A stretch of DNA of 64,000 nucleotides from Candidatus Saccharimonadota bacterium (lineage in GTDB: Bacteria > Patescibacteriota > Saccharimonadia > Saccharimonadales > Saccharimonadaceae), in contig JAIKZA010000008.1 of NCBI GenBank assembly GCA_024682595.1, positions 10,697 through 74,696 of the forward strand, written 5' to 3'. Each line of letters starts with the position of its first letter. Position 1 is the first letter of the stretch. A model generated the notes under the pieces. It worked only from the letters and a program-made list of their open reading frames with translations, made no database searches and had not been told where the DNA came from. The position numbers and the translations under genes are program-made. Positions 7,465-64,000 of this stretch are shown here, piece after piece.

Positions 7465-7755
7465 TTTTTGACTATTCGCACAATTTGATAACGATTTGAA
7501 AGGCTCTAACAGATTAAATTGGAGTCTTTTTTGATTGATTTTAAGGTTCGAAAATAATAGTTTCAAAATCTTGTTCTGCTGCTCTGGTTTCGAATTTTCA
7601 AATATAGTTCGTGCCTTTGACGCTAGTTCTAACAGACAAGAGCGGCTTATATCGAAACTTTTGTCATTGTTTGTCAGTTCCATTAACTTGCTATCCTTTT
7701 CGTTGATTTCGGCTTCTATCTTTGTCGCAATTTTGTCATACTCATCCACAGTAAT
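7465..7755 (-). pseudogene. 3' fragment of a second large serine recombinase gene
   Basis: Colinear, ungapped with 258-548. The last 250 nt or so are about 90 percent identical by eye. It encodes DEYDKIATKIEAEINEKDSKLMELTNNDKSF..., nearly identical to the C-terminus of the intact recombinase. No N-terminal catalytic domain is present. Confidence 0.85.
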
Positions 7756-7789
7756 GCACCCGTTGCCCGGCCCCGGGAACCAAAATTTA

Positions 7790-8887: not shown

Positions 8888-9043
8888 AACATTATTATAC
8901 CGTGAAAAGATCCCCGTTCTAAACGGAGGCCTATTGATTGTTATGGCTCTGCGGCCACCTTTATTTCTCCATCTTTAGCAAGTCTGGTTAGTTTTTCGAT
9001 AGTTTTTACCTATATGCCAGCCATACTTAGGAGTATTTGTTAG

Positions 9044-9067
9044 TAATGTGTCAGCCAGGGGGAGCCA
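9044..9067 (+). repeat. att-like copy of the tRNA-Asn 3' end (copy C); probable outer island boundary
   Basis: GTGTCAGCCAGGGGGAGCCA (9048-9067) matches the tRNA 3' end at 16/20 and copy B at 17/20. Sequence to its right is unrelated to the element ends. Confidence 0.5.
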
Positions 9068-9197
9068 GGTTTAATATACAGATATATATTCAAATAAAGA
9101 GACGCTCGTAAGCAATGAAGAGGTCTTTTTTTGTTGTTTTTATAAAAATATTCAAAAGTACTTGTTTTTACGATTCGTTTATGCTTAAATACGTTTA

Positions 9198-9250
9198 TAA
9201 AAAGGTCAAATAAAAAGGTCAAATAAAAAGGTCAAATAAAAAGAAAGGTT
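9198..9250 (+). repeat. 13-bp tandem repeat (TAAAAAGGTCAAA x3 plus a partial copy) just upstream of the protease gene
   Basis: GGTC recurs at 9204, 9217 and 9230. A fourth, partial unit merges into the AAAGG SD of the ATG at 9257. Confidence 0.95.
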
Positions 9251-9256
9251 ACCTAT

Positions 9257-11983
9257 ATGGTTAGGAGAAAAAAGTCTTTGCTTTTTTCGGCATCATTAGC
9301 ATCTGCGGGTTTAGTCGCCGGCGGGTTGTTCATGATTGCCCCAAAAACGCAAGCGAGTAGCGATGAGGTCGCTATATCAAATACAGCAAACGCAGTAATT
9401 CAGGAAATCAGCAAAGAAAGCGGAATTTCAGCTAAAGGCGTGGAGACTGCTCTGAAAACCCATGAGCTAATAGTCAACATTCCAAACCTAGATGAATTTA
9501 AAGAAAGCCATCCAGACGCCATAAAGTATACAAAAATAGCCGAAAAGGTATACGTAGTCGAGTTCGCAGATTATAACACCACATCCGCAAACTATCTTGA
9601 TATAAAAGAAAAAGATAACAATTCTGGCGTTCTTTTAAATATGCAGTTAAAACTTGACGACGATGCAGAATCGAATGCGATATATAATTACGAGGAAATA
9701 AACCGATGCACTAATCGCTCTGCTACAACATACACAAATGGTACTAGCATACCAGACCAGTGCTTGGGCTGGGGAACTTCCGCCATGAAACTAGACACCT
9801 ATGCGAAAAGTCTAACTTCTGGCCAAAAAGTTACCGTTGCTGTGATTGATAGTGGCGTCCGCGCGTCTCACTGGGCATTCAAGAAGACAACCGTAGGCGA
9901 CCGCCTCGATATGACCTATGCTCACGATTATTACGATAACGACACAAATCCCGACGATAGTGGAAACGACGCCAACGACAGCATGACAGCAACTTGCAAT
10001 ATCACTACTCAAACATGCACTAACGTAAGTGCTGGCGCCTCAAGAGTAACGCATGGCACATCTGTTGCAGGAACAATCACCCAGGCCACTCCGGCGAGTG
10101 TAAAAATTGTTCCCATCCGCATTTCCGGCGGTAAAAGCATTGATCTTACGAAGGTAGTAATAGCTGTTTCTGAGTTAAAGGGTAAGGTTGACGTAATCAA
10201 CTTAAGTCTCGGCCTCGTAGAACAATTACCAAATCCGCTACCAGAAGAGTTTCAGACCACAATCGAACCTGCTTTTAGGGAAGCTAAAGAGGCTGGCACT
10301 ATTATAGTGGCCTCGGCCGGCAATGGTAGCGCTGGCTGGGTTTCTTATCCAGCGTCTAGTGACTATACCATCGCCGTATCTTCCGTCAATAATGCTAAAT
10401 CATTCTCGTCGTCGTTTTCTCAACATGGCGCAGAAATCGATTTCGCGGCACCTGGCGAGGAGCTTCTCCTGCCAACATCAAGTACTGGCGCGGATAATAC
10501 ATTAACCCTAATTGGTGGTACATCTTTCTCTGCACCTTACATTTCTGCAGCAATAGCAAATATCTTAACCGAACACCCAAACTATAACTACAACCAGGTC
10601 TATAACGCCCTTAAACTCGATGCTGAAGACTTAGGCGCAGCTGGCAAAGATGAGTACTATGGTTGGGGCAGCGTAAGCTTCCATGTTAACAAATACGCGG
10701 ATTTAAGTATTTCGACGCCAGCCGTAACAGCGGCAACTAACTGGACAAATAGTAATGCCACCATTAAAGCTACTGCGAGCAGTAACGCGTACAATATTAA
10801 TAAGTACAAAGTAGACAATGGCAATACCACAACCGCTACTCCGAGCTCTTGGTCAACCATTTCTTCGTCCAGTAAATCATACAACCTTTCGCAAACTGTC
10901 TCCGCAAACGGAACATATACGCTTTGGTTCAAGAATAGCAACAACGAGACCGCCTCGAAGACCGTTACGGTAAATAATATTGATAAAACCGCACCGGTAA
11001 TTAGCACCGCCCTCTCAGCAAGCAGTGTTACGGCTAATGGGGCAACTTTAAATATTGGAGTAACAGATAGCGCAAGTGGTCTCGGTCGAATCGTCTGGCA
11101 CTATAAAGAAAACTATGCAAGCAGCTATACAGACAAGACCGAAACGTATGCTAGCTCGAGTACTGGTGAGACTTCCGCAACAACTAAGAGCCTAGTTCTA
11201 ACTGGGCTCAATGAATCCTCCCGATACGCAGCATATGCGACCGTCTATGATGTTGCGGGCAACGCTAAAGATTCTGAAACAATTTACTTTGCCACTAGAG
11301 CAGCGAGCGATCCGTCAGTTCCGGCGACTAGTATTGCTGTCAGCCCCGCAACCGCAAACGTCAACGTAGGAGCTACGCTAAGCTTGACCGCCACCGTCAC
11401 TCCTACAAATTCAACCGATACGATTACTTGGAGCAGTAGCGATAGTAGTGTTGCGACAGTTGATGCGAATGGCGTCGTAAAAGGGATAAAAGCAGGAACA
11501 GCGACCATTACCGCCAAGGCGAACGACAATGTCTGGAACACCGCTATTATAACCGTAAAAGCTACTACAACGACGGTTCCAGCAACAGACATAAGCATTA
11601 ATCCTGTTTCTGTCAGTATTAACGTCGGCGAGGAAGCAACCCCAACCGTAACGCTTACTCCTACAAATTCAACCGATACGATTACTTGGAGCAGTAGCGA
11701 TAGTAGTGTTGCGACAGTGTCTAGCACTGGTAAAATAATAGCCGTTAAGGCTGGCACGGCCACCATTACCGCTATGGCAAATAGCAATGTGTCGGCAAAT
11801 ATTACAGTTACCGTACTAGGGGGAACAAACAACGATCCAGTAGCTCCTACTGAGCCAACCGAACCAAAAGACGTTAACATAAAGAATCCTAAAACTGCCG
11901 ATATTAATACTCCTGCAATAGCAAGCGTAGGTGGAATTCTGAGCGCTCTAGCGTTCTTCATCTTCCGCGCAAAACGCCGTTAG
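9257..11983 (+). CDS. Secreted, cell-surface subtilisin-like (S8) serine protease with Ig-like and two Big_2 domains
   Basis: Signal peptide. Catalytic motifs VAVIDSGV, HGTSVAGT and GGTSFSAPY. Two Big_2 repeats (..WSSSDSSVATV...KAGTATITA). C-terminal NPKTAD, then a hydrophobic helix and RAKRR tail. Confidence 0.9.
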   Translation: MVRRKKSLLFSASLASAGLVAGGLFMIAPKTQASSDEVAISNTANAVIQEISKESGISAKGVETALKTHELIVNIPNLDEFKESHPDAIKYTKIAEKVYVVEFADYNTTSANYLDIKEKDNNSGVLLNMQLKLDDDAESNAIYNYEEINRCTNRSATTYTNGTSIPDQCLGWGTSAMKLDTYAKSLTSGQKVTVAVIDSGVRASHWAFKKTTVGDRLDMTYAHDYYDNDTNPDDSGNDANDSMTATCNITTQTCTNVSAGASRVTHGTSVAGTITQATPASVKIVPIRISGGKSIDLTKVVIAVSELKGKVDVINLSLGLVEQLPNPLPEEFQTTIEPAFREAKEAGTIIVASAGNGSAGWVSYPASSDYTIAVSSVNNAKSFSSSFSQHGAEIDFAAPGEELLLPTSSTGADNTLTLIGGTSFSAPYISAAIANILTEHPNYNYNQVYNALKLDAEDLGAAGKDEYYGWGSVSFHVNKYADLSISTPAVTAATNWTNSNATIKATASSNAYNINKYKVDNGNTTTATPSSWSTISSSSKSYNLSQTVSANGTYTLWFKNSNNETASKTVTVNNIDKTAPVISTALSASSVTANGATLNIGVTDSASGLGRIVWHYKENYASSYTDKTETYASSSTGETSATTKSLVLTGLNESSRYAAYATVYDVAGNAKDSETIYFATRAASDPSVPATSIAVSPATANVNVGATLSLTATVTPTNSTDTITWSSSDSSVATVDANGVVKGIKAGTATITAKANDNVWNTAIITVKATTTTVPATDISINPVSVSINVGEEATPTVTLTPTNSTDTITWSSSDSSVATVSSTGKIIAVKAGTATITAMANSNVSANITVTVLGGTNNDPVAPTEPTEPKDVNIKNPKTADINTPAIASVGGILSALAFFIFRAKRR
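11399..11718 (+). repeat. Two exact 62-nt copies inside the protease gene (11399-11460 and 11657-11718)
   Basis: The two copies are identical on direct comparison. The 258-nt spacing equals one Big_2 domain. Confidence 0.95.
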
Positions 11984-27557: not shown

Positions 27558-28448
27558 GTGAGAACAACAAAGATCCTTTCCATTGCATTAACACTACTCT
27601 GCGCGTCACTGACTGCATGCGCAGGGGCAACAAAACCGAATCAGCAGCAGCAGCAGACCGTAAGTCAGCCGGCAGCTGAAGCTCAGCCCGAAGACAACGT
27701 GAGCAGCGTCGGTATCGAATCTCCGGACAACAGCAGAGCCGAAAAAGACAAGGAAGCTCGGGAAGAGCTTTATCCTGAAAAAGAGCCTGAGCATGAAGGC
27801 GACGTCGGTATCGAATCTCCGGACAACAGCAGAGCCGAAAAAGACAAGGAAGCTCGGGAAGAGCTGGAACGCCAGCAGGAAGAAGCCGAAAGGCAGCGCG
27901 AAGAAGAGGAGCGCCAGCAGGAAGAACAGGCATACTCTGGAAACGGCACTTATATCCTGAGTGACGGCACCGAAGTACAAACCGAACATAGGATCGAGGA
28001 CTATATCGAGAAAAATGAGTATCGCGTGAAGAGAGATGGGGTTATAGTTCCTAAACACGAGTTTATTCTTGATGTCGGAAGAATGTGCTACGACATCTTT
28101 GGCTCTGGCGAGCTCGAAGGGGCAGCTGGTTTCGATTTTGAGGGCGGCGGAGTCGAATTCTCAGAGTTCGACAAAAAGAATCTGGCGCACGCAATTACTA
28201 TTGAGGTAAGAGACGCCGACAATTTTGCAGCTTACTCCATCGTAAAGATGTTCGACTGCTCAATGCAGGCAAACTGGCTTCCCGACGACGAGCACGATAT
28301 AAAAGTCGGTGAGTCGTATATGCATTTAGACTTAGCAGTACTTATTTTGTACGGGCTCGAGCAGGCGGAAACCAACCCTAGACGGGATATTTTTGCGGAT
28401 ATCTCGTTTGTAAGCAATTACGGTAGCAAAGACGCTCGACGTTGGTAG
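27558..28448 (+). CDS. Lipoprotein with a duplicated E/K/R-rich segment and an unknown C-terminal domain; compositionally foreign
   Basis: GTG start, signal peptide with lipobox LTAC. Visibly higher G+C than the flanks. Confidence 0.8.
   Translation: MRTTKILSIALTLLCASLTACAGATKPNQQQQQTVSQPAAEAQPEDNVSSVGIESPDNSRAEKDKEAREELYPEKEPEHEGDVGIESPDNSRAEKDKEAREELERQQEEAERQREEEERQQEEQAYSGNGTYILSDGTEVQTEHRIEDYIEKNEYRVKRDGVIVPKHEFILDVGRMCYDIFGSGELEGAAGFDFEGGGVEFSEFDKKNLAHAITIEVRDADNFAAYSIVKMFDCSMQANWLPDDEHDIKVGESYMHLDLAVLILYGLEQAETNPRRDIFADISFVSNYGSKDARRW
27707..27865 (+). repeat. Exact 63-nt direct repeat (27707-27769 and 27803-27865), 96-nt period
   Basis: The two copies are identical. Each encodes VGIESPDNSRAEKDKEAREEL. 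Confidence 0.95.
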
Positions 28449-28479: not shown

Positions 28480-28506
28480 AGCCTCGCTACAGATGCGAGG
28501 CTTTTT
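28480..28506 (+). terminator. Rho-independent terminator
   Basis: AGCCTCGC / GCGAGGCT stem with a 7-nt loop, then TTTTT. The T-run abuts the stop of the convergent gene. Confidence 0.75.
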
Positions 28507-31376
28507 CATGCTGTGATTTTTTGGTTCTTCTTATCACTCACGAAAGAGTTAATATGTATGATGCCAATTACATGCGTAAAGTTTTCGGTCGATTCAATGG
28601 TTAGTTCAACTTTTGGTTCTTGATAGAAGAGAGGGCCGAGACCTTCTGGTTCATAATTCGCTATAAATATGAGTGCGTTCATTTGAGCTAGAACCGTGCG
28701 AGCTTGTTCTTTGGTCTGCCCAGTACGACGAGCGATGAAGCCAAGCATCGAATTGTCTAGCGGATGCTCTTTTCGGTAATCTTCCATATATGCAACGGCT
28801 TGATTTTTTTCATACACCCCCATAGCCACGCCGAGTTCTTGATCAAGCATATAGCGTTCGCATAAATGGTTTTCTTCGGTATCCTCGGTATAGTAAGACC
28901 CTAAGATTCTAGTTATATTCATAGCCTTGGTTATATTATTAATAGTATCAATAGCGCCGCCAATAACTGGGGTAACACCTAGAAGTGCATCGCCAACCAC
29001 AGATCCAGTATCCCCAGGGCTATAATTTGCTTCGATTGCCGGATCCGGATAACCCAATTCTGCGCCACGATTAGCGTATTCCACATCGCATTTCGCAATA
29101 AAGTTGTCATTATCTTTTTTAATCGGTGGATTGGGATTATTTACGGGGTCATAGTTATCGAATACGCCTTTTTCCTCTAGTCTTTTCATCATTTTCTCAG
29201 TATTCATGCCTATCGTTGAGAAATCTCCCACATATTTAGGCATACAAAATGCGGATGCGTATTTAAAATCATCATTTAGGTAGTTTATTTCTGGGCAGTC
29301 TCCTTCGGATATTAAAGTATCTAAAGAATACGCATGACTAGCCGGCGTCAGTGAAATTAGCGACTTTCCTGCAGTCGACATGAGCACAGCAACCTTCCCC
29401 ATGACACTCTGTGTGCTAAACGAAAGGTTACCAAAAGAGCGCGCAAGAGAACCCATAAATGTATGCTCAGACGAGACATCGAACGGGCTAAGCGTATACC
29501 TATCAATTCGCGCCTGTTCGGCGATGACTTCTTGTTTTGCAAGATTGTATGCGAGTAGAGTCTCGGGAGTCGCAGGCTGCATAGCAACATGCCTAGCTAA
29601 TTCCCCCATAATTATTTCTGAGCCCCACATTAACACGGCACTAGATTCAGGCCCCATCATGAATGACGAAAAATCTCTAGTCATTGCATTTACGGCTTTT
29701 GGTACTAAAACGTCTACTACGGCACCAACTATGAGTGAGATAGATGTTCCTAAGGCAACGCCGGCTAGGAGACCTAGTAATTTTGTTCCGCCAAGAGTTA
29801 CCACATCGCCAACCGCATCAACAACACCAGCAGCAATCTTAGCACCCGTACAAGCTTTGTAGCCAGTGCCGCCATCGATAGTGCTCATGATTCGACGAAA
29901 TTGACTCGGACTAGTAATAAAAGACTTAACGATTGGATCCTCACTAGTAAGCTTTGAGCCGCCAAAAACGGCAGCCATAGGTGAACTACTCATCATAGAA
30001 CCCTCTACTTCAACCTCATCGCCCTCGCCAAATTTCAATATTTTTTTCTCGGACTTAGTAGCATAGTCTGCATATACATCCGCTATCAAATCAAATCCAC
30101 CATCACCGGCTTGCATTCGCTGAACAGCCTCCAAGAAACGTAGCGCCATCACGGCAACTTGCGCCATTTCCATATTTTTTATCATGCTATTTATAGTCGT
30201 AGCAACAGTATAGAGCTGACATCCTCCGTTAACCAGAGTCCCTACAATACTAAAATCCATCCCCTTACCAACTTCTTGTTCAACCATATCGCTAACTTTT
30301 ACCTCAACATCATCCGGGGAGTCTATATCTGTACGAGTACGACCGCTCTCTAGGTACTCCTCCTTTATTGGATTGCCATCATCGTCAACTCGAACTTCGC
30401 CGTCTTTATCGACAGCATCTCTTTCCTCTGTTCTACCACTTTCAACTTCGCCACTCATCTTATGAGTGGATTTATCCAACGCTTCTTGAGAGTTAGTATC
30501 TATTTTTTCTTTCGTTTCATCGAAATCTTTACCATTGTTATCTTCTTGGTTAAGCTCATTCCGCGTAGCTCCAACTCTCCCCTTATATACCTTGGTGCCC
30601 GTTTCTCCGTACGCTACTGGCACGCTACTGCCGACGGTCTTCATGCCAGCATCCAAATCTGCTGCAATCTTTGTATTTGTTGCAACTACAGAATCCATAT
30701 TATCGGCATCAACTTTAACTTCCTCGCCAACCTCGTTTTTGAAATACAGGCTATCCTTGTCGCCTTCGCCTCTAACATCGACACCGGCTTGCGAGAGCTT
30801 AACTTTCATATAGTCCGAGAATTTACTCCATACGCCGCCCTTCGTATTTGTGCCGCTCATAATCCCCTTGATTAGAACTCTACTACGTACTTTGGAAGCA
30901 ATTTCAACTGGGTCAAATGCGCTCTGTAGGTTACTTACTACGCCAGCTAGCATGGCGCTTTGGCTACTAAAGAAAACACTCATACACATCGCTAATATGA
31001 TGAGAATCATGCCGGCCGGTCCAACAACCTTAGCGGTATTCATTAAGCCACCGTTTTTTCTTACATTTCTTATAAAAGTGAAAGCATTCCCCGATACAGA
31101 AGCTGCAACCATTTTAGCCGTCTGGCCTGTGCGATTAGTCCACGTAGCGTCATTTCGGCTAGAGCCATCTTTGTCAGATTGTTGATTTCGTTCGCCCGCA
31201 TCAAGAGTATCTCTTTCTTTTCCGGATTCCTGATTGTCATTATTGTTTCTTCGGGGGTTATGCTCGTAGTCATAAATCCGGTGGTTTGCCCCATCGCCAA
31301 AATCGACGTTTCCGGAGTCCTCAACCTTGTCTATACCGTGACCGGTATAATCACCATAATGACCACCATTATCCAT
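28506..31376 (-). CDS. Large polytopic membrane protein, paralogue of the T4SS-locus protein at 57454-60240
   Basis: Same layout as the paralogue: charged disordered N-terminus, TM helix, large exported domain, central TM cluster and conserved C-terminal blocks (QARIDRYTLSPFDVSSEHTFMGS versus EAEIDRLRRSPLDTSSPNTFLGS). ATG at 31376 preferred; the ORF track starts at GTG 31424. Confidence 0.8.
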   Translation of the reverse strand: MDNGGHYGDYTGHGIDKVEDSGNVDFGDGANHRIYDYEHNPRRNNNDNQESGKERDTLDAGERNQQSDKDGSSRNDATWTNRTGQTAKMVAASVSGNAFTFIRNVRKNGGLMNTAKVVGPAGMILIILAMCMSVFFSSQSAMLAGVVSNLQSAFDPVEIASKVRSRVLIKGIMSGTNTKGGVWSKFSDYMKVKLSQAGVDVRGEGDKDSLYFKNEVGEEVKVDADNMDSVVATNTKIAADLDAGMKTVGSSVPVAYGETGTKVYKGRVGATRNELNQEDNNGKDFDETKEKIDTNSQEALDKSTHKMSGEVESGRTEERDAVDKDGEVRVDDDGNPIKEEYLESGRTRTDIDSPDDVEVKVSDMVEQEVGKGMDFSIVGTLVNGGCQLYTVATTINSMIKNMEMAQVAVMALRFLEAVQRMQAGDGGFDLIADVYADYATKSEKKILKFGEGDEVEVEGSMMSSSPMAAVFGGSKLTSEDPIVKSFITSPSQFRRIMSTIDGGTGYKACTGAKIAAGVVDAVGDVVTLGGTKLLGLLAGVALGTSISLIVGAVVDVLVPKAVNAMTRDFSSFMMGPESSAVLMWGSEIIMGELARHVAMQPATPETLLAYNLAKQEVIAEQARIDRYTLSPFDVSSEHTFMGSLARSFGNLSFSTQSVMGKVAVLMSTAGKSLISLTPASHAYSLDTLISEGDCPEINYLNDDFKYASAFCMPKYVGDFSTIGMNTEKMMKRLEEKGVFDNYDPVNNPNPPIKKDNDNFIAKCDVEYANRGAELGYPDPAIEANYSPGDTGSVVGDALLGVTPVIGGAIDTINNITKAMNITRILGSYYTEDTEENHLCERYMLDQELGVAMGVYEKNQAVAYMEDYRKEHPLDNSMLGFIARRTGQTKEQARTVLAQMNALIFIANYEPEGLGPLFYQEPKVELTIESTENFTHVIGIIHINSFVSDKKNQKITA

Positions 31377-31473
31377 AATTATCCCAATTATAGCATAAAC
31401 AATTTGTAAATATCTAATAAGCACTTGCTTTTTTTATTAGATGATGATTAGATTTAAATAGGAGTGCTATATT

Positions 31474-32079
31474 ATGGCAAAAACAAAAATTCAAACAACA
31501 AGGTCAAATAAACACACCGCCATGATGATAATTGGTGGAGTTTTTCTTGTTGCGGTGCTTTGTTTTGGCGCTTTAGCTGGCATAAAAATGGCAAGCAAGG
31601 ACGAAAAAGTAGTAATTGAAGAAAGCGATATTAATACCGCAAATACAGAAAAGGAACAAAAACAGCCAACTCCCGAATCGGATATTGACAAAAATTACAC
31701 CACCCCAGGAAACGAAGCGAAGGCAAAAAATGACGAACTCGAAAAAAGACAACACCAACAAGTAGAAAGAAATGAGTCTGGTCTAAAGAAAGCAAATGTA
31801 TTATTGCACGATCCTTATGTCGTAGGAGAAAAAACAGTAATTAGTAGTACTATCACGAATATTGTCGAAACCGAGGGAACCTGTAGCTATATATTCACAA
31901 AAGATACTCAGTCCGTAACGAAGATGACTTCAGTATTACCTAATGCAAAAAACACTGTGTGCGAAGCGGTAGTGCTTGAAAAAGGATCACTCAGTTCAGG
32001 AGAATGGAAAGTAAGGCTTGAATATAAATCTAATTTATCGGAGGGCGTGAGTGAAACACAAACTTTTACAATTCAGTAA
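31474..32079 (+). CDS. Hypothetical membrane-anchored exported protein
   Basis: GGAG SD, one TM helix and a Cys-containing beta-rich C-terminus. Confidence 0.6.
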   Translation: MAKTKIQTTRSNKHTAMMIIGGVFLVAVLCFGALAGIKMASKDEKVVIEESDINTANTEKEQKQPTPESDIDKNYTTPGNEAKAKNDELEKRQHQQVERNESGLKKANVLLHDPYVVGEKTVISSTITNIVETEGTCSYIFTKDTQSVTKMTSVLPNAKNTVCEAVVLEKGSLSSGEWKVRLEYKSNLSEGVSETQTFTIQ

Positions 32080-34375
32080 ATTAATAGCCGTAGTAGTATT
32101 TTTGGTAGTATTCTTTGGGCTTGCTGTTAAAAATACACCAGACTCTACCGCTATTAAGGCTACAGATTTTAAGGCTGGGCGCATTATTGATGATGGCGTT
32201 TTTTATAACTCTGGCAGCATGTCGGTAGCGGATATTCAAAATTTTATGGATAGCCACTTGCCGACTTGCGATATGTGGGGCACTCAAAAAATCGGTTACG
32301 GTTATTACATAAAAGGTAAAGCGGTAGATCCAAATATTACTCGCGCAGAATATGCCAGAAAGATGCGCACCGAAGGTGGCGATAGTCGCTATCATGATGC
32401 ACCATATGTTTGTATTAATAAGTACTACGAAAACCCAACTACGCATAAAAACAACTTCGCTACTAGAGGCGTAGCCGAAGAAGGGATGCTTTCAGCCGCA
32501 CAGATTATTTATAATGCAGCAAAAGAATTTAATATTAATCCGCAAGTTCTATTAGTGATGCTGAAGAAAGAAAGCTACGCTTGGGGCGACGATTGGCCAA
32601 CTAAAAATGAGTTCGATACTATAATGGGCTATGCCTGCCCAGATAATGCGGCTTGCGACACGAAATATTATGGTTTTTATAATCAGGTAACTAGGGCAGC
32701 CTGGCAATTAAACTATTACAAAGAGCATATTTATAGCTACAATTATCACCCGTTCACTACGAACAAAATATACTATTCACCGACATATTCTTGTGGTCAA
32801 AAATCGGTCTATATAGAAAATTACGCCACCGCTTCCCTCTATATTTATACTCCTTACACCCCAAACGATGCAGCTCTTAGAAATTACCCCGGCACAGCAA
32901 CTTGTGGTTCATATGGTAATCGAAATTTCTTTATGTATTTTAGCGAATGGTTCGGCAATCCGTTGCTTCCGAGTGAATATGAAAAAATAGAGGAAGCCTA
33001 TGAGTTATTAGGTGGAGAAGAAAAATTTGGCGCTAAAATAGGGACGATTAGTACTAATAAGGCTACTGGCATATATTGGCAACAGTACGAGAACGGATAT
33101 GTCTTAGGCAACTCAACATACGGCTTCCACGAATCATCCGGCAAGATACGTGAAGTATGGCGAAGCTTTGGTTTTGAGGGAGGAAAAATGGGCTTCCCAA
33201 TTGGCGAAATACTAACAAATGAAGAAACTGGTATAACTTACCAGCAATATCAGAACGGGTATATTCTAGGCAACGAAGAACTCGGCTATTACGAGTCGAT
33301 GGGCGGTATATATGAATACTGGAAAGCGAATAATTACGAAAAAGGTAAATTAGGTTTCCCAATTAGTAGTATTAAATCCGAAAGGACTACTGGCGGAGAA
33401 TATCAGCTCTACGAGCATGGAGTCGTGATAGGATCAGCCAAGACTGGCTATTATACTATCAGTGAAGAATATCTTCAAAAGTGGTTAAAGAACCCGTCAG
33501 AGTACGGCCTACCGTCTGAAGACGAAACTAATAAACAATTAACTTTACAAGCCGCCCTATTTACTAGTGATGGGTTCATTATTAGTGGTGGCATCTATAA
33601 GAAATGGCTAAGTCTCGATCTCGGTAAACCAATAGATATATTGAGAAGTAATAAGAATACTGGAATCTACTGGCAGGAATACGAGAAAGGTTACGTTTTG
33701 GGCAATGCAAAGTATGGCTTTTATGAATCATCAGGTCCAATCCGCCAGGTTTGGAAGAGCTTTGGTTTCGAGGGTGGTAAGTTTGGATTCCCAGTAGATG
33801 ACATAAGAACTAACGAAAAGTCTGGCATCATTTACCAGCAATACCAGAAGGGCTACATTGTCGGTAAGGATGATCTTGGTTATTATGAGTCAACTGGTAA
33901 AATACGCGATTACTGGCGTAGATTTAATTTCGAAAACGGAAAGATGGGCTTCCCTATTAGTAACATTAGTACTAATACTAAAACTGGGATTTATTTCCAG
34001 GAGTACGAGAACGGCTTCATACTAGGAAACGACAAATATGGCTATCATGAATCTACTGGTAAAATACGTGAAGTTTGGAGAAGCTTCGGTTTTGAGGGTG
34101 GTAAGTTTGGATTCCCAGTAGATGACATAAGAACTAATACGGCGACGAATATGACCTGGCAGCAATATCAAAACGGCTATATTGTTGGGAATGATAAAGT
34201 TGGATTCTATGAGTCTACCGGCGCGTTACGCGAATATTGGCGCAGAAGCGGCTTCGAGAGCGGAAAGATGGGCTTCCCAACAAGCAACGTAAGAACAAGT
34301 GGTAATTATCAGTATCAGCAATATCAAAATGGTGTTTTATATTATAATACTAAAACCAAAAAATACACTTGGTGA
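32051..34375 (+). CDS. Secreted cell-wall protein: N-terminal domain of about 300 aa (possibly muramidase-like) plus about nine LGFP repeats
   Basis: Signal anchor. Repeated G(K/R)(M/L/F)GFP....T....G..YQ.Y..G.I.......G.YES.G.I...W units. GTG start. Confidence 0.85.
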   Translation: MKHKLLQFSKLIAVVVFLVVFFGLAVKNTPDSTAIKATDFKAGRIIDDGVFYNSGSMSVADIQNFMDSHLPTCDMWGTQKIGYGYYIKGKAVDPNITRAEYARKMRTEGGDSRYHDAPYVCINKYYENPTTHKNNFATRGVAEEGMLSAAQIIYNAAKEFNINPQVLLVMLKKESYAWGDDWPTKNEFDTIMGYACPDNAACDTKYYGFYNQVTRAAWQLNYYKEHIYSYNYHPFTTNKIYYSPTYSCGQKSVYIENYATASLYIYTPYTPNDAALRNYPGTATCGSYGNRNFFMYFSEWFGNPLLPSEYEKIEEAYELLGGEEKFGAKIGTISTNKATGIYWQQYENGYVLGNSTYGFHESSGKIREVWRSFGFEGGKMGFPIGEILTNEETGITYQQYQNGYILGNEELGYYESMGGIYEYWKANNYEKGKLGFPISSIKSERTTGGEYQLYEHGVVIGSAKTGYYTISEEYLQKWLKNPSEYGLPSEDETNKQLTLQAALFTSDGFIISGGIYKKWLSLDLGKPIDILRSNKNTGIYWQEYEKGYVLGNAKYGFYESSGPIRQVWKSFGFEGGKFGFPVDDIRTNEKSGIIYQQYQKGYIVGKDDLGYYESTGKIRDYWRRFNFENGKMGFPISNISTNTKTGIYFQEYENGFILGNDKYGYHESTGKIREVWRSFGFEGGKFGFPVDDIRTNTATNMTWQQYQNGYIVGNDKVGFYESTGALREYWRRSGFESGKMGFPTSNVRTSGNYQYQQYQNGVLYYNTKTKKYTW

Positions 34376-50850: not shown

Positions 50851-52239
50851 ATGCCAAACGAATGGCAGACCGTATTGGATGAGATAAAAAACAACGTATC
50901 CGAAATGGCCTATGAGGCGTATTTTGTTCGGTTTAAATTTGTCTCAAACGAAAACGGTATTTTAACTACCTCCGTGCCAAACGTGTTTATTAAAACGCAA
51001 GTCGAAGGTAAATTTCATAGCACGGTAATCGACGCTATTCAAAGTGCAAAGATTAACTTTGACGAATTAAAAGTTATTATCGACGGCAAGGAGAATAAAA
51101 CAACTGTCAGACGTGCAGTAGAAATCCTTGATAGCAACAAACCCGTTACAAATATACCAAAGCTCACCACTACTAGTTCTGTAATCACATACGGCGACTC
51201 GAAGAGGTTTTCGACCGATAATAATGGTCTTAATCCAAAATTTAGACTAAGTAATTATGTTGTTGGTAGTAATAATGATTTAGCTGTTAGTGCCGCACAC
51301 GCCGTGATTGAAAATCCGGGTTTACGTTATAATCCATATTTTATCTATGGTGGCCCAGGACTAGGTAAAACACATCTAATTCAAGCAATAGGCAACGAAA
51401 TTCTCGAACGCAATCCAGAGATGCACGTTTTATATGTTACTATTGAACAATTTTATCACGAATTCGTTGAGGCGATGCGTAAAAAGATTGATGGTTTTGC
51501 CGAAAAATATCGCAAAGTAGACGTATTAATCGTAGATGATTTTCAATTTATCGTGAACAAGGAAAAGTCTCAAGAGGAATTTTTCCATACATTCAATGAA
51601 CTACAACAGCACGATAAACAGATTATTATCGGGAGTGACCGTCTCCCTGCTCAGATTGCTACTATAGACGAACGCTTGGCGTCTCGCTTAATGATGGGCG
51701 TTCCTATCGATATTCAAATGCCAGACTTTGAGACACGATGTGCGATTTTAAAATCTAAAGCAGAGATGCTAGGAGCAGAAATCGACGATAAAACCGTGGA
51801 ATTCATTGCTGAAAACGTGCGAGATAATATCCGTAACCTTGAGGGGAAATTAAATCAAATATTAGCCTTGGCAGAATTAAGAGGTGTGCCAACTTACGAA
51901 TTAATCGATGATAGCTATATCGCACAGACAAGTGCACGAGCGAAACACAAAACTATATCGGTAAAGCAGTTGATTGATAAAGTCGCTAAATATTACGACT
52001 TAAGCTCAAAAGATTTATTGGGTACAAGCCGTATAAAAAATATCAAGACGGCGCGCCAGATAGGTATGTATTTAATGAAGGAAGAGTTAGGACTTAGTAC
52101 GGTGGAAATTGGTCGAGAACTAAGTAAAGATCACACGACGATAATGCACGGGATAAAAGTAATAAAAACTAATCTAAAAACAGATTTCAATTTGCGCGAG
52201 CAAATAACAGATTTGAGGCAAAAAATTTATACAAGTTGA
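50851..52239 (+). CDS. dnaA: Chromosomal replication initiator DnaA
   Basis: AAA+ motifs GGPGLGKTHL and VLIVDDFQF. C-terminal DnaA-box-binding domain (KDHTTIMHG). GGAGG SD. Confidence 0.95.
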   Translation: MPNEWQTVLDEIKNNVSEMAYEAYFVRFKFVSNENGILTTSVPNVFIKTQVEGKFHSTVIDAIQSAKINFDELKVIIDGKENKTTVRRAVEILDSNKPVTNIPKLTTTSSVITYGDSKRFSTDNNGLNPKFRLSNYVVGSNNDLAVSAAHAVIENPGLRYNPYFIYGGPGLGKTHLIQAIGNEILERNPEMHVLYVTIEQFYHEFVEAMRKKIDGFAEKYRKVDVLIVDDFQFIVNKEKSQEEFFHTFNELQQHDKQIIIGSDRLPAQIATIDERLASRLMMGVPIDIQMPDFETRCAILKSKAEMLGAEIDDKTVEFIAENVRDNIRNLEGKLNQILALAELRGVPTYELIDDSYIAQTSARAKHKTISVKQLIDKVAKYYDLSSKDLLGTSRIKNIKTARQIGMYLMKEELGLSTVEIGRELSKDHTTIMHGIKVIKTNLKTDFNLREQITDLRQKIYTS

Positions 52240-52246
52240 TGAGATA

Positions 52247-52510
52247 TGTGGAAAAGCCGTGAATAAACTTGTAGAAAAGATGGTTTAAAAGATGTGGATG
52301 CTAAATGTGAAAAAGTATAAAAAGTGGAATAACCCAAACTCATCGACCAACTTTTTACACAAAGCCCGTCTTTTACACGAGTTTTCCAAAATATTTTCGA
52401 CAGGTTTTACACAAATTTTTTCATCAATTACGCCCCTGTTAAATATGAGTTTTACCAGTTTTGCACATAGAACTACTATTACTACTACTAATTTATTAAT
52501 AATGGAAAAG
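52247..52510. other. oriC core: eleven DnaA-box-like 9-mers plus an AT-rich candidate DNA-unwinding element (DUE)
   Basis: Five boxes in the TGTGGAAAA orientation (52247, 52270, 52293, 52306, 52323). Six boxes in the TTTT(A/C)CACA orientation (52353, 52371, 52382, 52405, 52450, 52459). Then AT-rich ACTACTATTACTACTACTAATTTATTAATAAT. Confidence 0.7.
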
Positions 52511-52536
52511 GAATAAACTTTTAATTGGAGGAGAAA

Positions 52537-54660: not shown

Positions 54661-55575
54661 TTACGGAGCGAGGGAGTTTGCCGAATTTAATATATCCTGC
54701 GGGACGTTGGGTGTATTATCTTTGGTAAGCAGTGGCTGGGGTTTGGATATAACATGCCAATTCTCTCCATCTTTCTTTAATAGAATACGATAGTGGTTAT
54801 ATGAAAAATCACGATCAAAATCGTAAATATATAGAGTTGTAGCATAATAATTATCAACGAGGTTTTGACCATCGGATATTGTGTATTTTCCAAGATTGAA
54901 TGATGATCTTATAGTCTCTTTCGGTGTGGATTTTGGGGATTCATTATAAGTATCGAAGGGATTTTCTAGATTAAAAGATATTTGATAATCTGTTAATTCG
55001 ACATTCTTGAAGGTTTTCATTTTAGCGACAGCATCATCGAGAAATTCTGGTGTGGTTTTTATTTTAATTAATGGGATATTATCTTCTAAATAAGTGTAAC
55101 TAATAGAAAATAAACTATTATTTATAGGCAAATAATTTAAAATTGGATACTGTTTTTTGATTGCAATACCCTCTTCATTCAAGGCTCTTCCTACAATACC
55201 TTCCGCATTGGCGAATTCTTGTTTATGTAAATTTGCATACGATCTACCTTCGTCGTCGGTGGCGGATAATATCCCGACAATATAATGGTAATTGTTTGAT
55301 ATTTCTATAGTGCGTTCAATACTACTGAAGTGGTCGCATTTGACTTTGACGGTATATGACCCTGGTTCTAGCCAGATATTTGAATTATTATTTACTGGCT
55401 CATCATTAAGTGTAACTTCTGCGATATATGGCGCATACTGAATAGTTGTTTTAATCTTATTAATACGTAATGTGAAAGTCGCAATAAAAATTGCAAGCCC
55501 GACGAGTAAAATGATGCCAAATAATATAAATAGTAGATGTGTATTATTGGCGATTCTACGAGTTGTTTTTTTCAT
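54661..55575 (-). CDS. Membrane-anchored exported protein with a PEGA-like beta-sandwich; last gene of the T4SS-like operon
   Basis: N-terminal TM helix. AEVTLNDEPV....LEPGSYTVKVKCDHFSSIERTIEI resembles a PEGA domain. Confidence 0.55.
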   Translation of the reverse strand: MKKTTRRIANNTHLLFILFGIILLVGLAIFIATFTLRINKIKTTIQYAPYIAEVTLNDEPVNNNSNIWLEPGSYTVKVKCDHFSSIERTIEISNNYHYIVGILSATDDEGRSYANLHKQEFANAEGIVGRALNEEGIAIKKQYPILNYLPINNSLFSISYTYLEDNIPLIKIKTTPEFLDDAVAKMKTFKNVELTDYQISFNLENPFDTYNESPKSTPKETIRSSFNLGKYTISDGQNLVDNYYATTLYIYDFDRDFSYNHYRILLKKDGENWHVISKPQPLLTKDNTPNVPQDILNSANSLAP

Positions 55576-60303: not shown

Positions 60304-62100
60304 TTATTTTTTAGTTTCAGTTGGGTTGGTAGTAATTAGGTCTTCTTCGGTATTTGATGCGACTATTTGAATATGTACGTGATTCTGACCAGCAAAGAAG
60401 AGACCTTGTCCGACTGGGAAATTTGAAAGACGTTTACGTTCCTCGTCGGTGAGTTTGAAGACGTCAGAAAGAACATCGACGGCGGATGCAGACTGTTTTA
60501 ATAGAAGCTGCATGGATGAGTTTGCGACGATGGCGCGACCCATCTTTGATGACATGAAATCCTCGACGTCCTGCGTAATAGTTGTGAGACCGAGATAATA
60601 TTTACGGGCACGTTTCGCAAGGCTGAATAGGAAGTTGGCTGAGTCTTCATATTTCATAAGCTGCCAAGCCTCATCTACGAGGAGGAGGCGACGTTTTTGT
60701 TCGGCGCGAACAATGTTCCAAATATGCGAGAGGACGATATACATAGCGACTGGGCGAAGCTCATCTTCAAGATCGCGAATATTGAATACAGCCATCTGAT
60801 TATTGATGTCGATATTTGATTGTTGAGAGAAAATACCCGCGAAGCTACCAGTTGTATATTTACGTAGACGCTGTGCGAGGCTTGGGCCAGAACCGCCCAT
60901 ATGCAGTAGGGTGTCAAATAGGTTCATGATAGTCGGTGGAACGGCGGTGTGAGTTAATGGGTCATTTGTGATGCCGGCGCGAGCATAGGTATCAATGAGC
61001 GCCTGATCAAGGTCAGCCTCTTCAGTTGGCGAAAGGCCAGCGCCGTTTCCCAACATGAGACGGAAGAGGCCATGGAGTGTGACAAGGTTAGCGCGAAGTG
61101 CGTCATTAGCATCTTCTGCGTCGACTACTTTTGGAAGGTCGAATGGATTGATGCGAACGTCGGAGTTAAGGCTGAGACGAACATAGGCACCGCCGACGGC
61201 GTCGCAAAGTTTTTGATACTCGTTTTCTGGGTCGATAATGAGAATTTCTGTGCCGACCATCATGGAGCGAAGCGCTTCAAGCTTGACCGTAAATGATTTA
61301 CCTGCACCAGACTTAGCAAAGACGACCATATTGGCATTCTCAAGCGAGAATCGGTCGAATATGACGAGACCATTATTATGCATATTGACACCATAAAGGA
61401 TGCCTTTTTCCTGAGTAAGGTCTGCGGATGTGAATGGGAAACTAGTAGAAATTGCACCCGTGTTCATATTACGACGAATCTGAAGCTGGTCGGAGCATTG
61501 CGGCATTGTGCTATTTAGGCCCTGCTCCTGCTGAGATGAAGCAACTTTGCTGAATACCATTTGTTGCCCAAAGATATTTTCGATTTTATGTTGGACGAAC
61601 TGTAGTTCATCTAACGAGTCGGCGTAAATGGTAACATATAGGCCGTAGCGGAAAAACTTTTCAGCACCGACCTGAAGCTGGTCGCGTAGATCTTCGGCAT
61701 CGGATATAGCGGCTTCTAGCTCTGGGTCGCGAACTTTTCCTTTCTCACTATTAATATTCATACTAGCTTCGAGCTGAGTAACCTTTTTAGTAAGGTTCTT
61801 CATCACTATGTCGGTGTCGACTGGGTATATATACATAGATACATCAATAACTTCGTCAATATTAATAATGGAACTTAGCCAACCAGTATAAAGCATACGT
61901 GGATACCCATACACATAGATGGTGCGACCGTATTTCGTACCAAGACGGAAATAATCTGAGTGAATCTCGATACTTGATGGAGAAATAAGGTCTCGAAGTG
62001 TGGTGATACCGGTCTCGAACGCTTTTTGAATTTCAACTTCTTCTTGAAGTTGAGCTTGTGCGGCAATATCTGCTGCGCTGATTTGTTTTTGCTTTGCCAT
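60304..62100 (-). CDS. virB4: VirB4-family T4SS ATPase (PrgJ/TcpF-like)
   Basis: N-terminal IEIHSDYFRLGTKYGRTIYVYGYP pattern, Walker A VFAKSGAGKSF, Walker B RLLLVDEAWQLM. Confidence 0.9.
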   Translation of the reverse strand: MAKQKQISAADIAAQAQLQEEVEIQKAFETGITTLRDLISPSSIEIHSDYFRLGTKYGRTIYVYGYPRMLYTGWLSSIINIDEVIDVSMYIYPVDTDIVMKNLTKKVTQLEASMNINSEKGKVRDPELEAAISDAEDLRDQLQVGAEKFFRYGLYVTIYADSLDELQFVQHKIENIFGQQMVFSKVASSQQEQGLNSTMPQCSDQLQIRRNMNTGAISTSFPFTSADLTQEKGILYGVNMHNNGLVIFDRFSLENANMVVFAKSGAGKSFTVKLEALRSMMVGTEILIIDPENEYQKLCDAVGGAYVRLSLNSDVRINPFDLPKVVDAEDANDALRANLVTLHGLFRLMLGNGAGLSPTEEADLDQALIDTYARAGITNDPLTHTAVPPTIMNLFDTLLHMGGSGPSLAQRLRKYTTGSFAGIFSQQSNIDINNQMAVFNIRDLEDELRPVAMYIVLSHIWNIVRAEQKRRLLLVDEAWQLMKYEDSANFLFSLAKRARKYYLGLTTITQDVEDFMSSKMGRAIVANSSMQLLLKQSASAVDVLSDVFKLTDEERKRLSNFPVGQGLFFAGQNHVHIQIVASNTEEDLITTNPTETKK

Positions 62101-63044
62101 TATTTTTGACTCCCTTCAGTACCTGGTTCACCCTTTTTAACATATAAGTGGGCAAGTTTATTGAAATCTCCTAGCGGCTCACGAACGGCGGTGTCTGGGT
62201 TATTGAAGTTGTAATAGAGCTGGCCTAGCTCTTTTGTGCTAAGGCGAACGGAGTGGATTCCGATTTGGAATAAGCCTGCAATAACGGCTTCTACGCGGTT
62301 GTTTATTTCTGTCACGGCCTTGTCGTAGGTGGCGCGGTCGATGCGAGTAATTGTTTGACCTTTGGCACGACTGAATGATTTGAAGAAATTCTTTGTTTGG
62401 GTTACGGCTTTTTCGGCTTCGGATGAAGTATAGTATGGAATTACAATAAAGAAAGATTTATCCATAATGTTTGCTTCCTGAGACAACTCGTCGATAAAGC
62501 CAATATAATCATCCATAAGAATGCCGAGGAGCATATTATCGTTGTCACGACGGAGTTCGGTTAAGCGATCTAGATAAGGTCCAATATCGACGCGTTGAGA
62601 ACGAATAAGGATTTGAACGGTAAAATTCAAGGAGTTTAAGAAGTTTTGATAAGAGTATTCAACCGCTTCACGCTCAGTCTCAGACATGAGATCAAAGTTA
62701 ATAGATTTACAGGCAACCACGGCCCTAAAGGAACCGTCTTTCATAATTACCATTGAGTCGCGTAACTCGGAAATAATTAATGACGCTTGAGTGGAAGTGG
62801 GATTTTCTTTTGGTGTAGCATCGCCGTTAGGAGCTTGTTGCTGTGGAATAGTGGTAGGCTGACCTGCAACCGGTTGACCCGCAACTGGTTGACCTGCAAC
62901 TGGCTGACTTACGATTGGCTGGCCAGCAACTGGTTGATTGGCAACTGGCTGGTTTATGATAGGTTGGCCAATAGGCGGCTGAGGAATACCGTTCATTGGT
63001 TGCGGGTTTTGCATTGGTAGTGGCTGTGGTTGATTTGGCTGCAC
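62100..63044 (-). CDS. Protein with an N-terminal QPxxx pentapeptide array and a VirB4-N-terminal-domain-like body
   Basis: GTG start with an AAGGAG SD. Stop TAA overlaps the virB4 ATG. The body (MVIMKDGSFRAVVACKSINFDLMSE...FFIVIPYY) parallels the N-domain of the downstream ATPase. Confidence 0.65.
   Translation of the reverse strand: MQPNQPQPLPMQNPQPMNGIPQPPIGQPIINQPVANQPVAGQPIVSQPVAGQPVAGQPVAGQPTTIPQQQAPNGDATPKENPTSTQASLIISELRDSMVIMKDGSFRAVVACKSINFDLMSETEREAVEYSYQNFLNSLNFTVQILIRSQRVDIGPYLDRLTELRRDNDNMLLGILMDDYIGFIDELSQEANIMDKSFFIVIPYYTSSEAEKAVTQTKNFFKSFSRAKGQTITRIDRATYDKAVTEINNRVEAVIAGLFQIGIHSVRLSTKELGQLYYNFNNPDTAVREPLGDFNKLAHLYVKKGEPGTEGSQK
62857..62976 (-). repeat. Eight tandem 15-nt units encoding QP(V/I)(A/V/I)(G/N/S)
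   Basis: Plus-strand GGYTGRCC(T/C)GCAAC(C/T)-type 15-mers read consecutively. Confidence 0.9.
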
Positions 63045-63053
63045 GTTAACTCC

Positions 63054-64000
63054 TTAATGTAATGAAATATAAACTTCGTCGTCTTTCTTTTCTTTAATAC
63101 GTTTCGCTTGTTGGGCGATGGTTTCAATGGAGAAGTCTGAGTTATTGGCGAGATCAATCATATTTTGGTCGGTTTGTTCGGCGACTTCTTTCATTTCTGC
63201 CTGACGCTTTTCTTCGGCCTCTTCCTGCTGGATTCTTTCTTGCTCTGCTCTTTCGGCTTCGATTCCGGCGACCATTGAATCTGACTTTATGATAGTGTCG
63301 TTATATTTTACGGCTTCATCACTAAGCGGATTACTTGGGATGATTGGTTTCGGCGCTGGAATTGACGAGTTATTAATGATGGGGTTATCTGGTAATGCAG
63401 GTGGTTGAGGCATTGGATATGCCTGAGGCTGTTGCATTGTTTGTGGCTGTGTAGTTTGTTGTGGCACTTGTTGATCGAGCTGCCCGTTATGATTGGTGAT
63501 GGTTGTGTTTTGGTTGTGGGTACTATTTTCAATAGCTGCGCGCATTTGACTAATAGCTAGATCATGGCGTGCCGACGCTCCATCCGTGAGAGTTTGATTG
63601 ATTAGATTATTACTGGCGGTTGTATTCTCGAACATGTCGGGAGTATCGTGAGCTTCGGCATAGACTTCTTCTTTTACGCCAGAATTAGGGGTTGTGCCCT
63701 TAATGGCGTAACCTTCAGTATCGATAATGTCGGCGAGGAATGAAAGGCGGTGGAGGGCTTCTTCTTGGTCGATATCTTTAGTACGGACTTTTTCGGTTTT
63801 CTTTGGAGCGGTAATTTTAATAGTCGTCTCTGGCTCGCCTGGCTCCCATGTGCGAACATGTGGCTTGAGATAAAAAGATACAACGGCGGACAGGTAGGTT
63901 TCCATCGGCTGATCCTTCTTTAGTGGTAAAGCGAGCGCGCCAAGAAGAATGATTGGCGGTATTAAGATGACGATAAAAGGTGGAAAAACTTGCCATAATA
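63054..64000 (-). CDS. PrgI/VirB3-like membrane protein with a long Q/P-rich and charged C-terminal extension (5' end outside the window)
   Basis: The frame stays open upstream of the ORF-track Met up to the window edge. It encodes LWQVFPPFIVILIPPIILLGALALPLKKDQPMETYLSAVVSFYLKPHVRTW, which matches the PrgI-family pattern (TM helices followed by ..G.P.E..L....F...P..R.Y). Confidence 0.6.
   Translation of the reverse strand, partial: LWQVFPPFIVILIPPIILLGALALPLKKDQPMETYLSAVVSFYLKPHVRTWEPGEPETTIKITAPKKTEKVRTKDIDQEEALHRLSFLADIIDTEGYAIKGTTPNSGVKEEVYAEAHDTPDMFENTTASNNLINQTLTDGASARHDLAISQMRAAIENSTHNQNTTITNHNGQLDQQVPQQTTQPQTMQQPQAYPMPQPPALPDNPIINNSSIPAPKPIIPSNPLSDEAVKYNDTIIKSDSMVAGIEAERAEQERIQQEEAEEKRQAEMKEVAEQTDQNMIDLANNSDFSIETIAQQAKRIKEKKDDEVYISLH

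Follow-up and report, generated by a model that had tools for sequence, protein, structure and literature searches.

The window examined here, a 64,000-nucleotide stretch of contig JAIKZA010000008.1 (assembly GCA_024682595.1) from a Candidatus Saccharimonadota bacterium, encodes two large membrane proteins that are true, ancient paralogues in separate clades. The first, of 928 aa, belongs to a monoderm-type type IV secretion system (T4SS) operon, and the second, of 956 aa, stands in a conserved gene module of its own, divergent from the genes for a single-pass membrane protein and for a secreted exoprotein that probably cuts peptidoglycan. The two are members of a large unnamed protein family, for which the label BIG is used throughout. 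The evidence for this relationship, for the conservation of the second module and for the probable nature of the exoprotein is set out below, followed by a weighing of what such a module may be for.

Two ancient paralogues of a large unnamed family

Comparison of the two translations by BLASTP gives a single collinear alignment (residues 57-970 against 52-928; 24% identity, 131 bits, E 3e-35), so that the paralogy proposed in the initial annotation, which had read it from a shared overall layout and several collinear blocks, rests on statistically significant similarity. The blocks quoted there, ARIDRYTLSPFDVSSEHTFMGSL versus AEIDRLRRSPLDTSSPNTFLGSI and EDYRKEHPLDNS versus YEKAHPVDNS, all lie within this alignment, and the central Gly/Ala-rich hydrophobic clusters, likewise described, are located at residues 541-582 and 487-544 of the two proteins. 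By tblastn, these are the only BIG copies in the window. For the second gene two starts had been considered, ATG at 31376 (956 aa) and GTG at 31424 (972 aa), of which the ATG is retained as the likely one and the GTG is set aside, because orthologues of the second copy are 948-968 aa long and a TG-extended TATAAT -10 box lies between the two candidates, at 31392-31387.

The family to which both proteins belong is extensive. With a profile of 40 sequences, 1913 clusters formed at 50% identity are matched at E<=1e-3, and of these 1159 reach E<=1e-30; nearly all of the clusters match end to end. The proteins typically measure about 900-1100 aa, nearly all of the 150 listed members are 860-1300 aa long, and both window paralogues match over their full length and carry the invariant motifs. 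The named sources are nearly all Saccharibacteria or other Patescibacteria, together with one 4.9-kb contig binned as Eubacteriales. Neither paralogue has a match in Pfam, NCBIfam, PHROGs or the PDB sequences, and 40 diverse members likewise yield none, save an occasional fused C-terminal Peptidase_M15 domain.

Hydropathy and an AlphaFold2 (AF2) model of the second paralogue, computed from a 76-sequence alignment (pLDDT 71.7, pTM 0.72), agree on a common layout: a disordered N-terminal tail of about 110 residues, then one transmembrane (TM) helix and a domain of about 350 residues that includes a variable insert, and finally a helical hairpin rich in Gly and Ala, followed by a well-conserved, mostly helical C-terminal domain. 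Hydropathy gives one N-terminal TM helix and a central cluster of about two helices, and the corresponding AF2 helices span residues 111-154, 502-525 and 543-566. For the second paralogue, the prediction thus comprises a cytoplasmic tail, a first TM segment at about 113-144, an extracytoplasmic domain and a TM hairpin at about 502-566. Two motifs are invariant, R-x3-SPFD-x2-S-x2-TF-x-G directly after the hairpin and HP(L/V)DNS-x2-G (HPLDNS in the second paralogue), and the columns invariant across the 76 sequences are R626, P631, D633, T639, F640, G642, D874 and G886. The C-terminal domain is likewise predicted to be extracytoplasmic, since fused CHAP or M15 domains, both of peptidoglycan hydrolases, form the C-terminus of some T4SS-type orthologues; judging from these sequences, such domains have been joined repeatedly to the BIG C-terminus. 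Many T4SS-type orthologues (P0039, P0041, P0044, P0063, P0094 and others) are 1080-1157 aa long, 150-230 residues longer than that of the window, some with precomputed CHAP (PF05257) matches and one with Peptidase_M15_4.

The initial annotation had suggested a comparison with VirB6, PrgH and TcpH, and BIG proved unlike all three in every test run, whether by hidden Markov model (HMM), profile, number of TM helices or fold. TrbL and TrbL_3 (PF04610, PF19590) match none of 40 BIG members at E<=1. An NCBIfam scan for conjugation proteins of the PrgH, TcpH and ConG kind assigns no family to either paralogue, though it recognises the neighbouring VirB4 and TrsD-like proteins; a search of the PDB sequences with the BIG profile found nothing, and Foldseek with the full-length model against the PDB gives a best E of 0.42 and TM-scores of at most 0.11, with no T4SS chain among the matches. 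With about three predicted TM helices, BIG falls short of the polytopic core of at least five that marks VirB6, and a place in a T4SS operon beside virB4, a further mark of VirB6, is held by 57454-60240 only and not by 28506-31376. The candidates VirB6, TrbL, PrgH and TcpH are rejected for this lack of HMM, profile or fold support, and BIG is a large unnamed family that is not VirB6 or TrbL by any test run.

A conserved module around the second copy

The immediate neighbours of the second copy are as first described, namely a TM-anchored protein of 201 aa with one TM helix (31474-32079) and an exoprotein with LGFP repeats (32051-34375), separated from the large gene by a divergent intergenic region of 97 bp (31377-31473). 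Two surveys approached the conservation of this arrangement from opposite ends. In the survey that started from BIG, all 12 loci with an orthologue (36-95% identity) share the module core, which consists of the exoprotein gene, a TM gene of about 200 aa upstream that overlaps it by 29 nt and the divergent large gene, followed usually by a poorly conserved convergent lipoprotein gene and then by Dus. The outer flank is a glycosyltransferase cluster in the window and in the survey loci L001 and L002, and an LCP ligase, yidC and dnaA in L004, L013 and L014; because this flank varies, the core is not simply frozen synteny.

The survey that started from the exoprotein looked up five distant members, and the four with DNA all show the module: in each, a gene of 196-203 aa shares 26-29 nt with the exoprotein gene, and a gene of 994-1480 aa runs in the divergent direction. 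Two of these four divergent proteins are BIG by BLASTP (E 1e-53 and 3e-21), and in the tree all four group with the non-T4SS copies. The pairing of the second copy with a wall gene, for which the initial annotation had called for a neighbourhood survey, is therefore kept in all 12 loci of the one survey and all four of the other. An overlap of 26-29 nt between TM gene and exoprotein gene was found again in L002, L004 and L076-L079. In a fifth locus reached from the exoprotein, GCA_016648615.1 (a 24686-bp contig), a 203-aa protein and an exoprotein that carries ChW repeats are encoded as a pair, divergently from the gene of a 1284-aa protein with a PF19590 TrbL_3 match, beyond which lies a 1066-aa protein.

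The remaining members of the module differ in their constancy. The 201-aa protein has a conserved C-terminal domain of about 95 aa with an invariant Cys pair (C137, C163); its assignment to T4SS_pilin was rejected as a hydrophobic-segment match, confined to the N-terminal TM segment (E 0.007, 16.9 bits against a cut-off of 26.6). A homologue of the lipoprotein, or an ORF of 230-300 aa in the same place, is present in most loci and missing in L078 and L079, and with 17-42% identity, compared with 61-94% for its neighbours, the lipoprotein is a fast-evolving member of the module and its least constant one. The window's lipoprotein (27558-28448) contains an internal duplication, in which VGIESPDNSRAEKDKEAREEL is present twice. 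A literature search found no publication on the second module, nor any that pairs Saccharibacteria with LGFP, and gene numbers of the SEML1 series (discussed below) in the original paper only.

The exoprotein as a probable peptidoglycan glycosidase

The exoprotein combines a nearly constant N-terminal part with an exchangeable C-terminal one. Its N-terminal domain (N-domain) has 1271 homologues, with 66-99% identity among the best 120 of the 1271, and about 150 columns of the first ~305 residues are invariant among nine orthologues. The C-terminal part varies between LGFP, Ricin-B lectin, ChW or Kelch-like repeats and sequence with no recognisable repeats; in the window it carries eight LGFP stretches (PF08310; 131.6 bits against a cut-off of 22, Pfam E 1.2e-38).

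An AF2 model of the N-domain (pLDDT 74.7, pTM 0.77) has fold matches that, though not individually significant, are consistent in kind. Most of the top 50 in the PDB are MltC/MltE lytic transglycosylases, GH73 autolysins (Acp, LytB, SagB, AtlE), g-type lysozymes and a GH23 chitinase, and most of the top 50 in the viral library BFVD are likewise SLT transglycosylases and endo-beta-N-acetylglucosaminidases, with probabilities up to 0.77. In addition, E174-S175, within LLVMLKKESYAWGD, is invariant in alignments of nine and of 35 sequences and follows a helix, the placement that the catalytic Glu has in the matched families, with E174 as the putative catalytic residue. Because of these fold matches and the invariant E174-S175 after a helix, the N-domain is read, with moderate confidence, as probably a lysozyme-like (GH23/GH73-type) peptidoglycan glycosidase.

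A covariation of repeat type with the adjacent glycan cluster was considered and rejected, as the same GT4-GT4-EpsG cluster accompanies LGFP repeats in the window and L001 and Ricin-B repeats in L002 and L076. In contigs of related strains (about 93% identity) from two bovine runs, position 33108 is joined to 34034, so that 925 nt are skipped and seven other letters stand in their place; close strains therefore differ in their number of LGFP repeats. In L001, the orthologue (6839-9318) is split into two ORFs (7840-9318 and 6839-7789), the result of either a frameshift or a misassembly of the repeats.

The T4SS locus and its essential counterpart

The 928-aa copy occupies a highly regular context. 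The order PrgI-like, TrsD-like, VirB4, BIG, lysozyme, PEGA-like, recF, dnaA is repeated in more than 30 species loci, and the T4SS copy always lies between virB4 and the gene of the multi-domain muralytic enzyme, to which it is translationally coupled, in the window by a 4-nt overlap. The VirB4-like ATPase (60304-62100) passes the NCBIfam equivalog cut-off (NF045971), and the observation that only one BIG copy is tied to an ATPase is correct, as the T4SS copy alone adjoins VirB4. The three domains first ascribed to the muralytic enzyme are recovered with unequal strength, Phage_lysozyme2 firmly and GDSL and NlpC/P60 weakly, and the protein at 54661-55575, described as TM/PEGA-like, contains one TM helix and matches PEGA weakly.

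A functional reference point is offered by Candidatus Southlakia epibionticum ML1, whose T4SS cluster comprises SEML1_0006-0019 (Wang et al., 2023; PMC10633639). Within it, SEML1_0007 is listed as a 'hypothetical protein' with the transposon-sequencing (Tn-seq) classes GD/ES/ES (growth defect, then essential), and of its 1113 aa a C-terminal DD-peptidase (M15) domain is the only annotated part (PMC10633639); a later survey refers to it solely as a 'peptidase' downstream of virB4. The 928-aa protein is the positional equivalent of this essential gene. Both lie between virB4 (0008) and a lysozyme gene (0006), by a PEGA protein (0005), recF, dnaN and dnaA, and both are of similar size; unlike SEML1_0007, the window's copy is without an M15 domain, and the equivalence is one of gene position. 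The core of SEML1_0007, about 950 aa, is unannotated. Furthermore, a second, exoprotein-linked copy is not described for the Southlakia system. Oral Saccharibacteria loci of the same gene order give weak BIG matches at the SEML1_0007 position.

Duplication history and further paralogues

Proteins of the T4SS type and of the second-copy type separate into two clades in a tree of 54 sequences, with an SH-aLRT of 100 for either clade. A wider, unrooted tree labelled by genomic context places all non-T4SS copies in one clade (SH-aLRT 100), around which the T4SS-linked copies form two groups. Sequence change is faster in the second copy than in that of the T4SS (67% versus 81% and 43% versus 76% identity, with the two copies presumed to reside in one genome). 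The distance between them is 26 kb in the window, and elsewhere the second copy is found in other contexts.

Beyond these two types, about 23 more paralogue loci (among L017-L046, from gut Saccharibacteria) show 22-30% identity to both window copies and have no virB4 nearby. Some share one genome, which then holds at least two such copies besides that of the T4SS (for example L033 with L034, and L029 with L035), and they sit among housekeeping genes including those for a P-type ATPase, nrdDG, pheST and bipA. At L017 (5604-7628) and 11 other loci (cluster c1), an exoprotein of 580-690 aa has a cutinase domain, accompanied in L017 by VWA and PKD domains; a cutinase-type esterase could be relevant to hosts with lipid-rich envelopes. 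In L018 (7857-9898), L021, L023, L024, L026, L028 and L031, tblastn matches continue for about 2 kb upstream of the intact paralogue through sequence that has no long ORF, which may be a decayed tandem copy. Two loci, L022 (9801-12398) and L046 (3513-6017), encode a protein of 834-865 aa with a weak TrbL/VirB6 match (E 0.008), beside the extra BIG paralogue and away from virB4.

Source of the DNA and features of the window

The DNA of the window is chromosomal and comes from a Saccharibacterium of the ruminant gut (Nanosyncoccaceae). Loci 95% identical to it come from metagenome-assembled genomes labelled Candidatus Saccharibacteria Tb.RUG.403 and Nanosyncoccaceae, and its sequence is seen again in bovine and sheep gut metagenomes. 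The genes dnaA and dnaN lie at 50851-53640, recF is also present, and the monoderm-type T4SS operon adjoins them on the minus strand. At 9257-11983 the window also encodes a subtilase of 908 aa (Peptidase_S8) that has Ig-like domains of the Big_2 type and is probably a further large surface protein. The features of the two BIG loci are collected in Table 1.

Table 1. Features of the second-copy module and of the T4SS locus, in window coordinates.
Feature	Position	Strand	Basis
Lipoprotein, 296 aa, lipobox LTAC, convergent with the large gene	27558..28448	+	Translation, TM/lipobox scan
GC-rich, terminator-like hairpin between the convergent lipoprotein and large genes	28480..28502	.	
Second BIG paralogue, 956 aa from ATG	28506..31376	-	BLASTP, orthologue lengths, tree, model
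Promoter-like site TAGATA-18-TATAAT with TG, 10 nt upstream of ATG 31376	31387..31416	-	
Single-pass membrane protein, 201 aa; gene overlaps the next by 29 nt	31474..32079	+	
Exoprotein, 774 aa, N-terminal signal or anchor, conserved domain of ~280 aa (32138-32980), 8 LGFP stretches	32051..34375	+	
Single-pass membrane protein, 304 aa, weak PEGA match	54661..55575	-	Pfam, TM scan
Exported muralytic enzyme, 623 aa	55586..57457	-	Phage_lysozyme2 E 8e-23; weak GDSL E 0.012; NlpC/P60 E 0.04
T4SS-locus BIG paralogue, 928 aa	57454..60240	-	BLASTP, gene order; stop overlaps the muralytic gene's start by 4 nt
VirB4-like ATPase, CD1110 family	60304..62100	-	NF045971 393.9 bits vs cut-off 325; Pfam TraG P-loop
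314-aa protein, weak TrsD/TraD-like match	62100..63044	-	NCBIfam scan
283-aa protein in PrgI/VirB3 (SEML1_0010) position, without family match	63054..63905	-	Gene order

Interpretation and alternatives

The reading preferred here is that an old duplication parted the origin-proximal copy of the T4SS operon from the copies elsewhere, and that BIG would act as a membrane-anchored platform that controls the position or the gating of a wall-cutting enzyme and thereby opens peptidoglycan locally. Platform and wall enzyme would serve the T4SS at one locus and a separate purpose at the other, where the second copy heads an ATPase-less module of lipoprotein, BIG and a divergent single-pass protein translationally coupled to the exoprotein. 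The probably lysozyme-like N-domain of the latter would cut peptidoglycan, and its C-terminal wall- or sugar-binding repeats are swapped between lineages. Taken as a whole, this reading has about an even chance of being right; the paralogy, the size of the family, the topology as a prediction, and the conserved gene order and gene overlaps are demonstrated, and we infer the enzymatic activity, the physical interaction and the target wall within it. As for the target, a host actinobacterial wall is slightly favoured over the cell's own, because the binding repeats are swapped on a constant enzyme independently of the adjacent glycan genes. The host-attachment or envelope-penetrating role put forward in the initial annotation may apply. 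An extended version, in which BIG is a new envelope-spanning platform that first served a T4SS and then became joined to a retargetable lysin, giving an ATPase-independent breach of the host wall at the contact site, with the swapped LGFP, Ricin or ChW repeats as host-range determinants of the epibiont, is rather unlikely to be true.

The recurring module of a large membrane protein and a wall-targeting exoprotein, as first proposed, survives in part. The second copy is paired with the TM protein and the exoprotein in every locus examined, distant genomes included, and both copies neighbour a secreted enzyme, muralytic or probably so, together with a TM protein of the single-pass kind. What did not hold is homology of the accessory genes between the loci, and generality: the module is not universal to the BIG family, since about half of the ~23 extra loci lack a wall-active neighbour.

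Several results weigh against the preferred reading. The N-domain of the exoprotein finds nothing relevant in Pfam (E<=1), NCBIfam, PHROGs or a PDB profile search, and its Foldseek matches have a best E of 0.11 in the PDB and 0.058 in BFVD, with TM-scores of at most 0.42 and none individually significant. The exoprotein and the T4SS lysozyme compare by BLASTP with a best E of 0.42, and the 201-aa and 304-aa TM proteins with E 2.4, while hhalign of 8-sequence profiles aligns only the TM helix of the latter two, at a probability of 10%. Common descent of the accessory genes was accordingly rejected for want of homology by BLASTP or hhalign; because these genes have no detectable homology, only the large protein is demonstrably duplicated, and the likeness of the two loci appears, at the sequence level, to be one of composition (large protein, wall enzyme, single-pass protein) and not of demonstrable common descent. 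Among the extra paralogue loci, 12 have a cutinase-VWA-PKD exoprotein gene directly upstream and the rest are without a wall-active neighbour. Furthermore, the Dus neighbourhood of Southlakia is without the module and its annotation tables are without LGFP or Ricin entries. Contigs about 93% identical in three bovine metatranscriptome assemblies are uninformative on expression: their depth is flat and low, and because one of them crosses the divergent intergenic region, DNA carry-over is possible. Finally, in most loci the exoprotein gene adjoins a cluster of glycosyltransferase, EpsG, GLF and LCP-ligase genes, which would fit a role in the cell's own wall.

This last point leads to the alternative of a housekeeping autolysin complex: the second module would serve growth, division or glycopolymer insertion in the cell's own wall, without any host role, and BIG would take the part that SpdC plays for SagB or FtsEX for PcsB. 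Such a function would sit well with the very high conservation of the catalytic-type domain and with the SagB-SpdC complex among the fold matches of the N-domain, as it does with the adjoining glycan genes. The repeat type, however, does not track those genes, and the module is unseen beside Dus in Southlakia, an absence that counts against this view as well. Repeats of the LGFP type typically occur in envelope proteins of Actinobacteria, the group to which the known hosts of cultured Saccharibacteria belong, and this points away from a purely self-directed role. On balance, the autolysin explanation, together with the SpdC- or FtsEX-like part assigned to BIG, is possible though somewhat doubtful.

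A different proposal keeps the second copy within secretion, as an alternative, exchangeable subunit that docks on the single VirB4 machine and alters its specificity, an idea likewise advanced for the multiple VirB6 paralogues of Rickettsiales. The shared full-length architecture and invariant motifs of the two proteins, the one ATPase locus visible in the window and the several dispersed paralogues of gut Saccharibacteria would all be expected of it. Its probability is nevertheless judged to be low, as the second copy has conserved partner genes and a divergent promoter region of its own, is separated from the T4SS by 26 kb in the window and has other surroundings elsewhere, changes much faster in sequence than its T4SS counterpart, and groups with the other non-T4SS copies in a clade apart. 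Least probable of all is that the adjacency of second copy and exoprotein is inherited gene order with no functional link. Saccharibacterial genomes are small and syntenic, and Dus and glycosyltransferases are often kept nearby too; but the divergent pair survives a change of both outer flanks (L004, L013 and L014 versus the window), remains in L078 and L079 without the lipoprotein, and is kept while BIG itself diverges to about 25% identity.

Significance and comparison with known systems

By what means Saccharibacteria attach to their actinobacterial hosts, open them and feed from them is a central question of Candidate Phyla Radiation (CPR) biology. A T4SS is essential in the one species tested, and no role is assigned to the core, about 950 aa long, of the largest of its unannotated subunits. 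This subunit is now placed in a family of nearly 2000 clusters, one old paralogue of which is tied to a probably muralytic exoprotein. The module thereby supplies concrete candidates for wall breaching and host specificity, as well as another genetic route to what the T4SS subunit does; if the own-wall role is the true one, it would represent an autolysin system specific to this group.

Among monoderm T4SSs, PrgH (pCF10), TcpH (pCW3), ConG (ICEBs1) and Orf15 (Tn916) are VirB6-type channel subunits, and PrgK, TcpG and CwlT are the hydrolases. The gene order of the T4SS copy corresponds to theirs, with a large membrane protein after virB4 and before a multi-domain peptidoglycan hydrolase. BIG differs from these proteins in that 40 members are without a TrbL/VirB6 HMM match, in having about three TM helices and not at least five, and in having no PDB fold match. 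In Southlakia, moreover, it is SEML1_0013 and SEML1_0011, and not SEML1_0007, that receive the VirB6-like assignment (PMC10633639); their window counterparts are expected beyond the window's end.

A parallel in multiplicity is found in RvhB6a-e of Rickettsiales, where a large T4SS membrane protein with big hydrophilic domains has been multiplied in a host-dependent, reduced genome. As with BIG, a T4SS-associated large membrane protein is present in several divergent paralogues. The rickettsial proteins are true VirB6 homologues and mostly tandem in the T4SS locus, whereas BIG is unrelated to them and dispersed, and one of its copies has a lysin partner of its own. Extended VirB6 proteins are discussed in PMC12857230.

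A further parallel, one of concept, is offered by SagB-SpdC of Staphylococcus aureus (PDB 6u0o) and by FtsEX-PcsB. BIG resembles SpdC and FtsX neither in sequence nor in fold, and its partnership with the exoprotein is a putative one; what the systems would share is a membrane protein that positions or activates a wall hydrolase, of the GH73 type or another.

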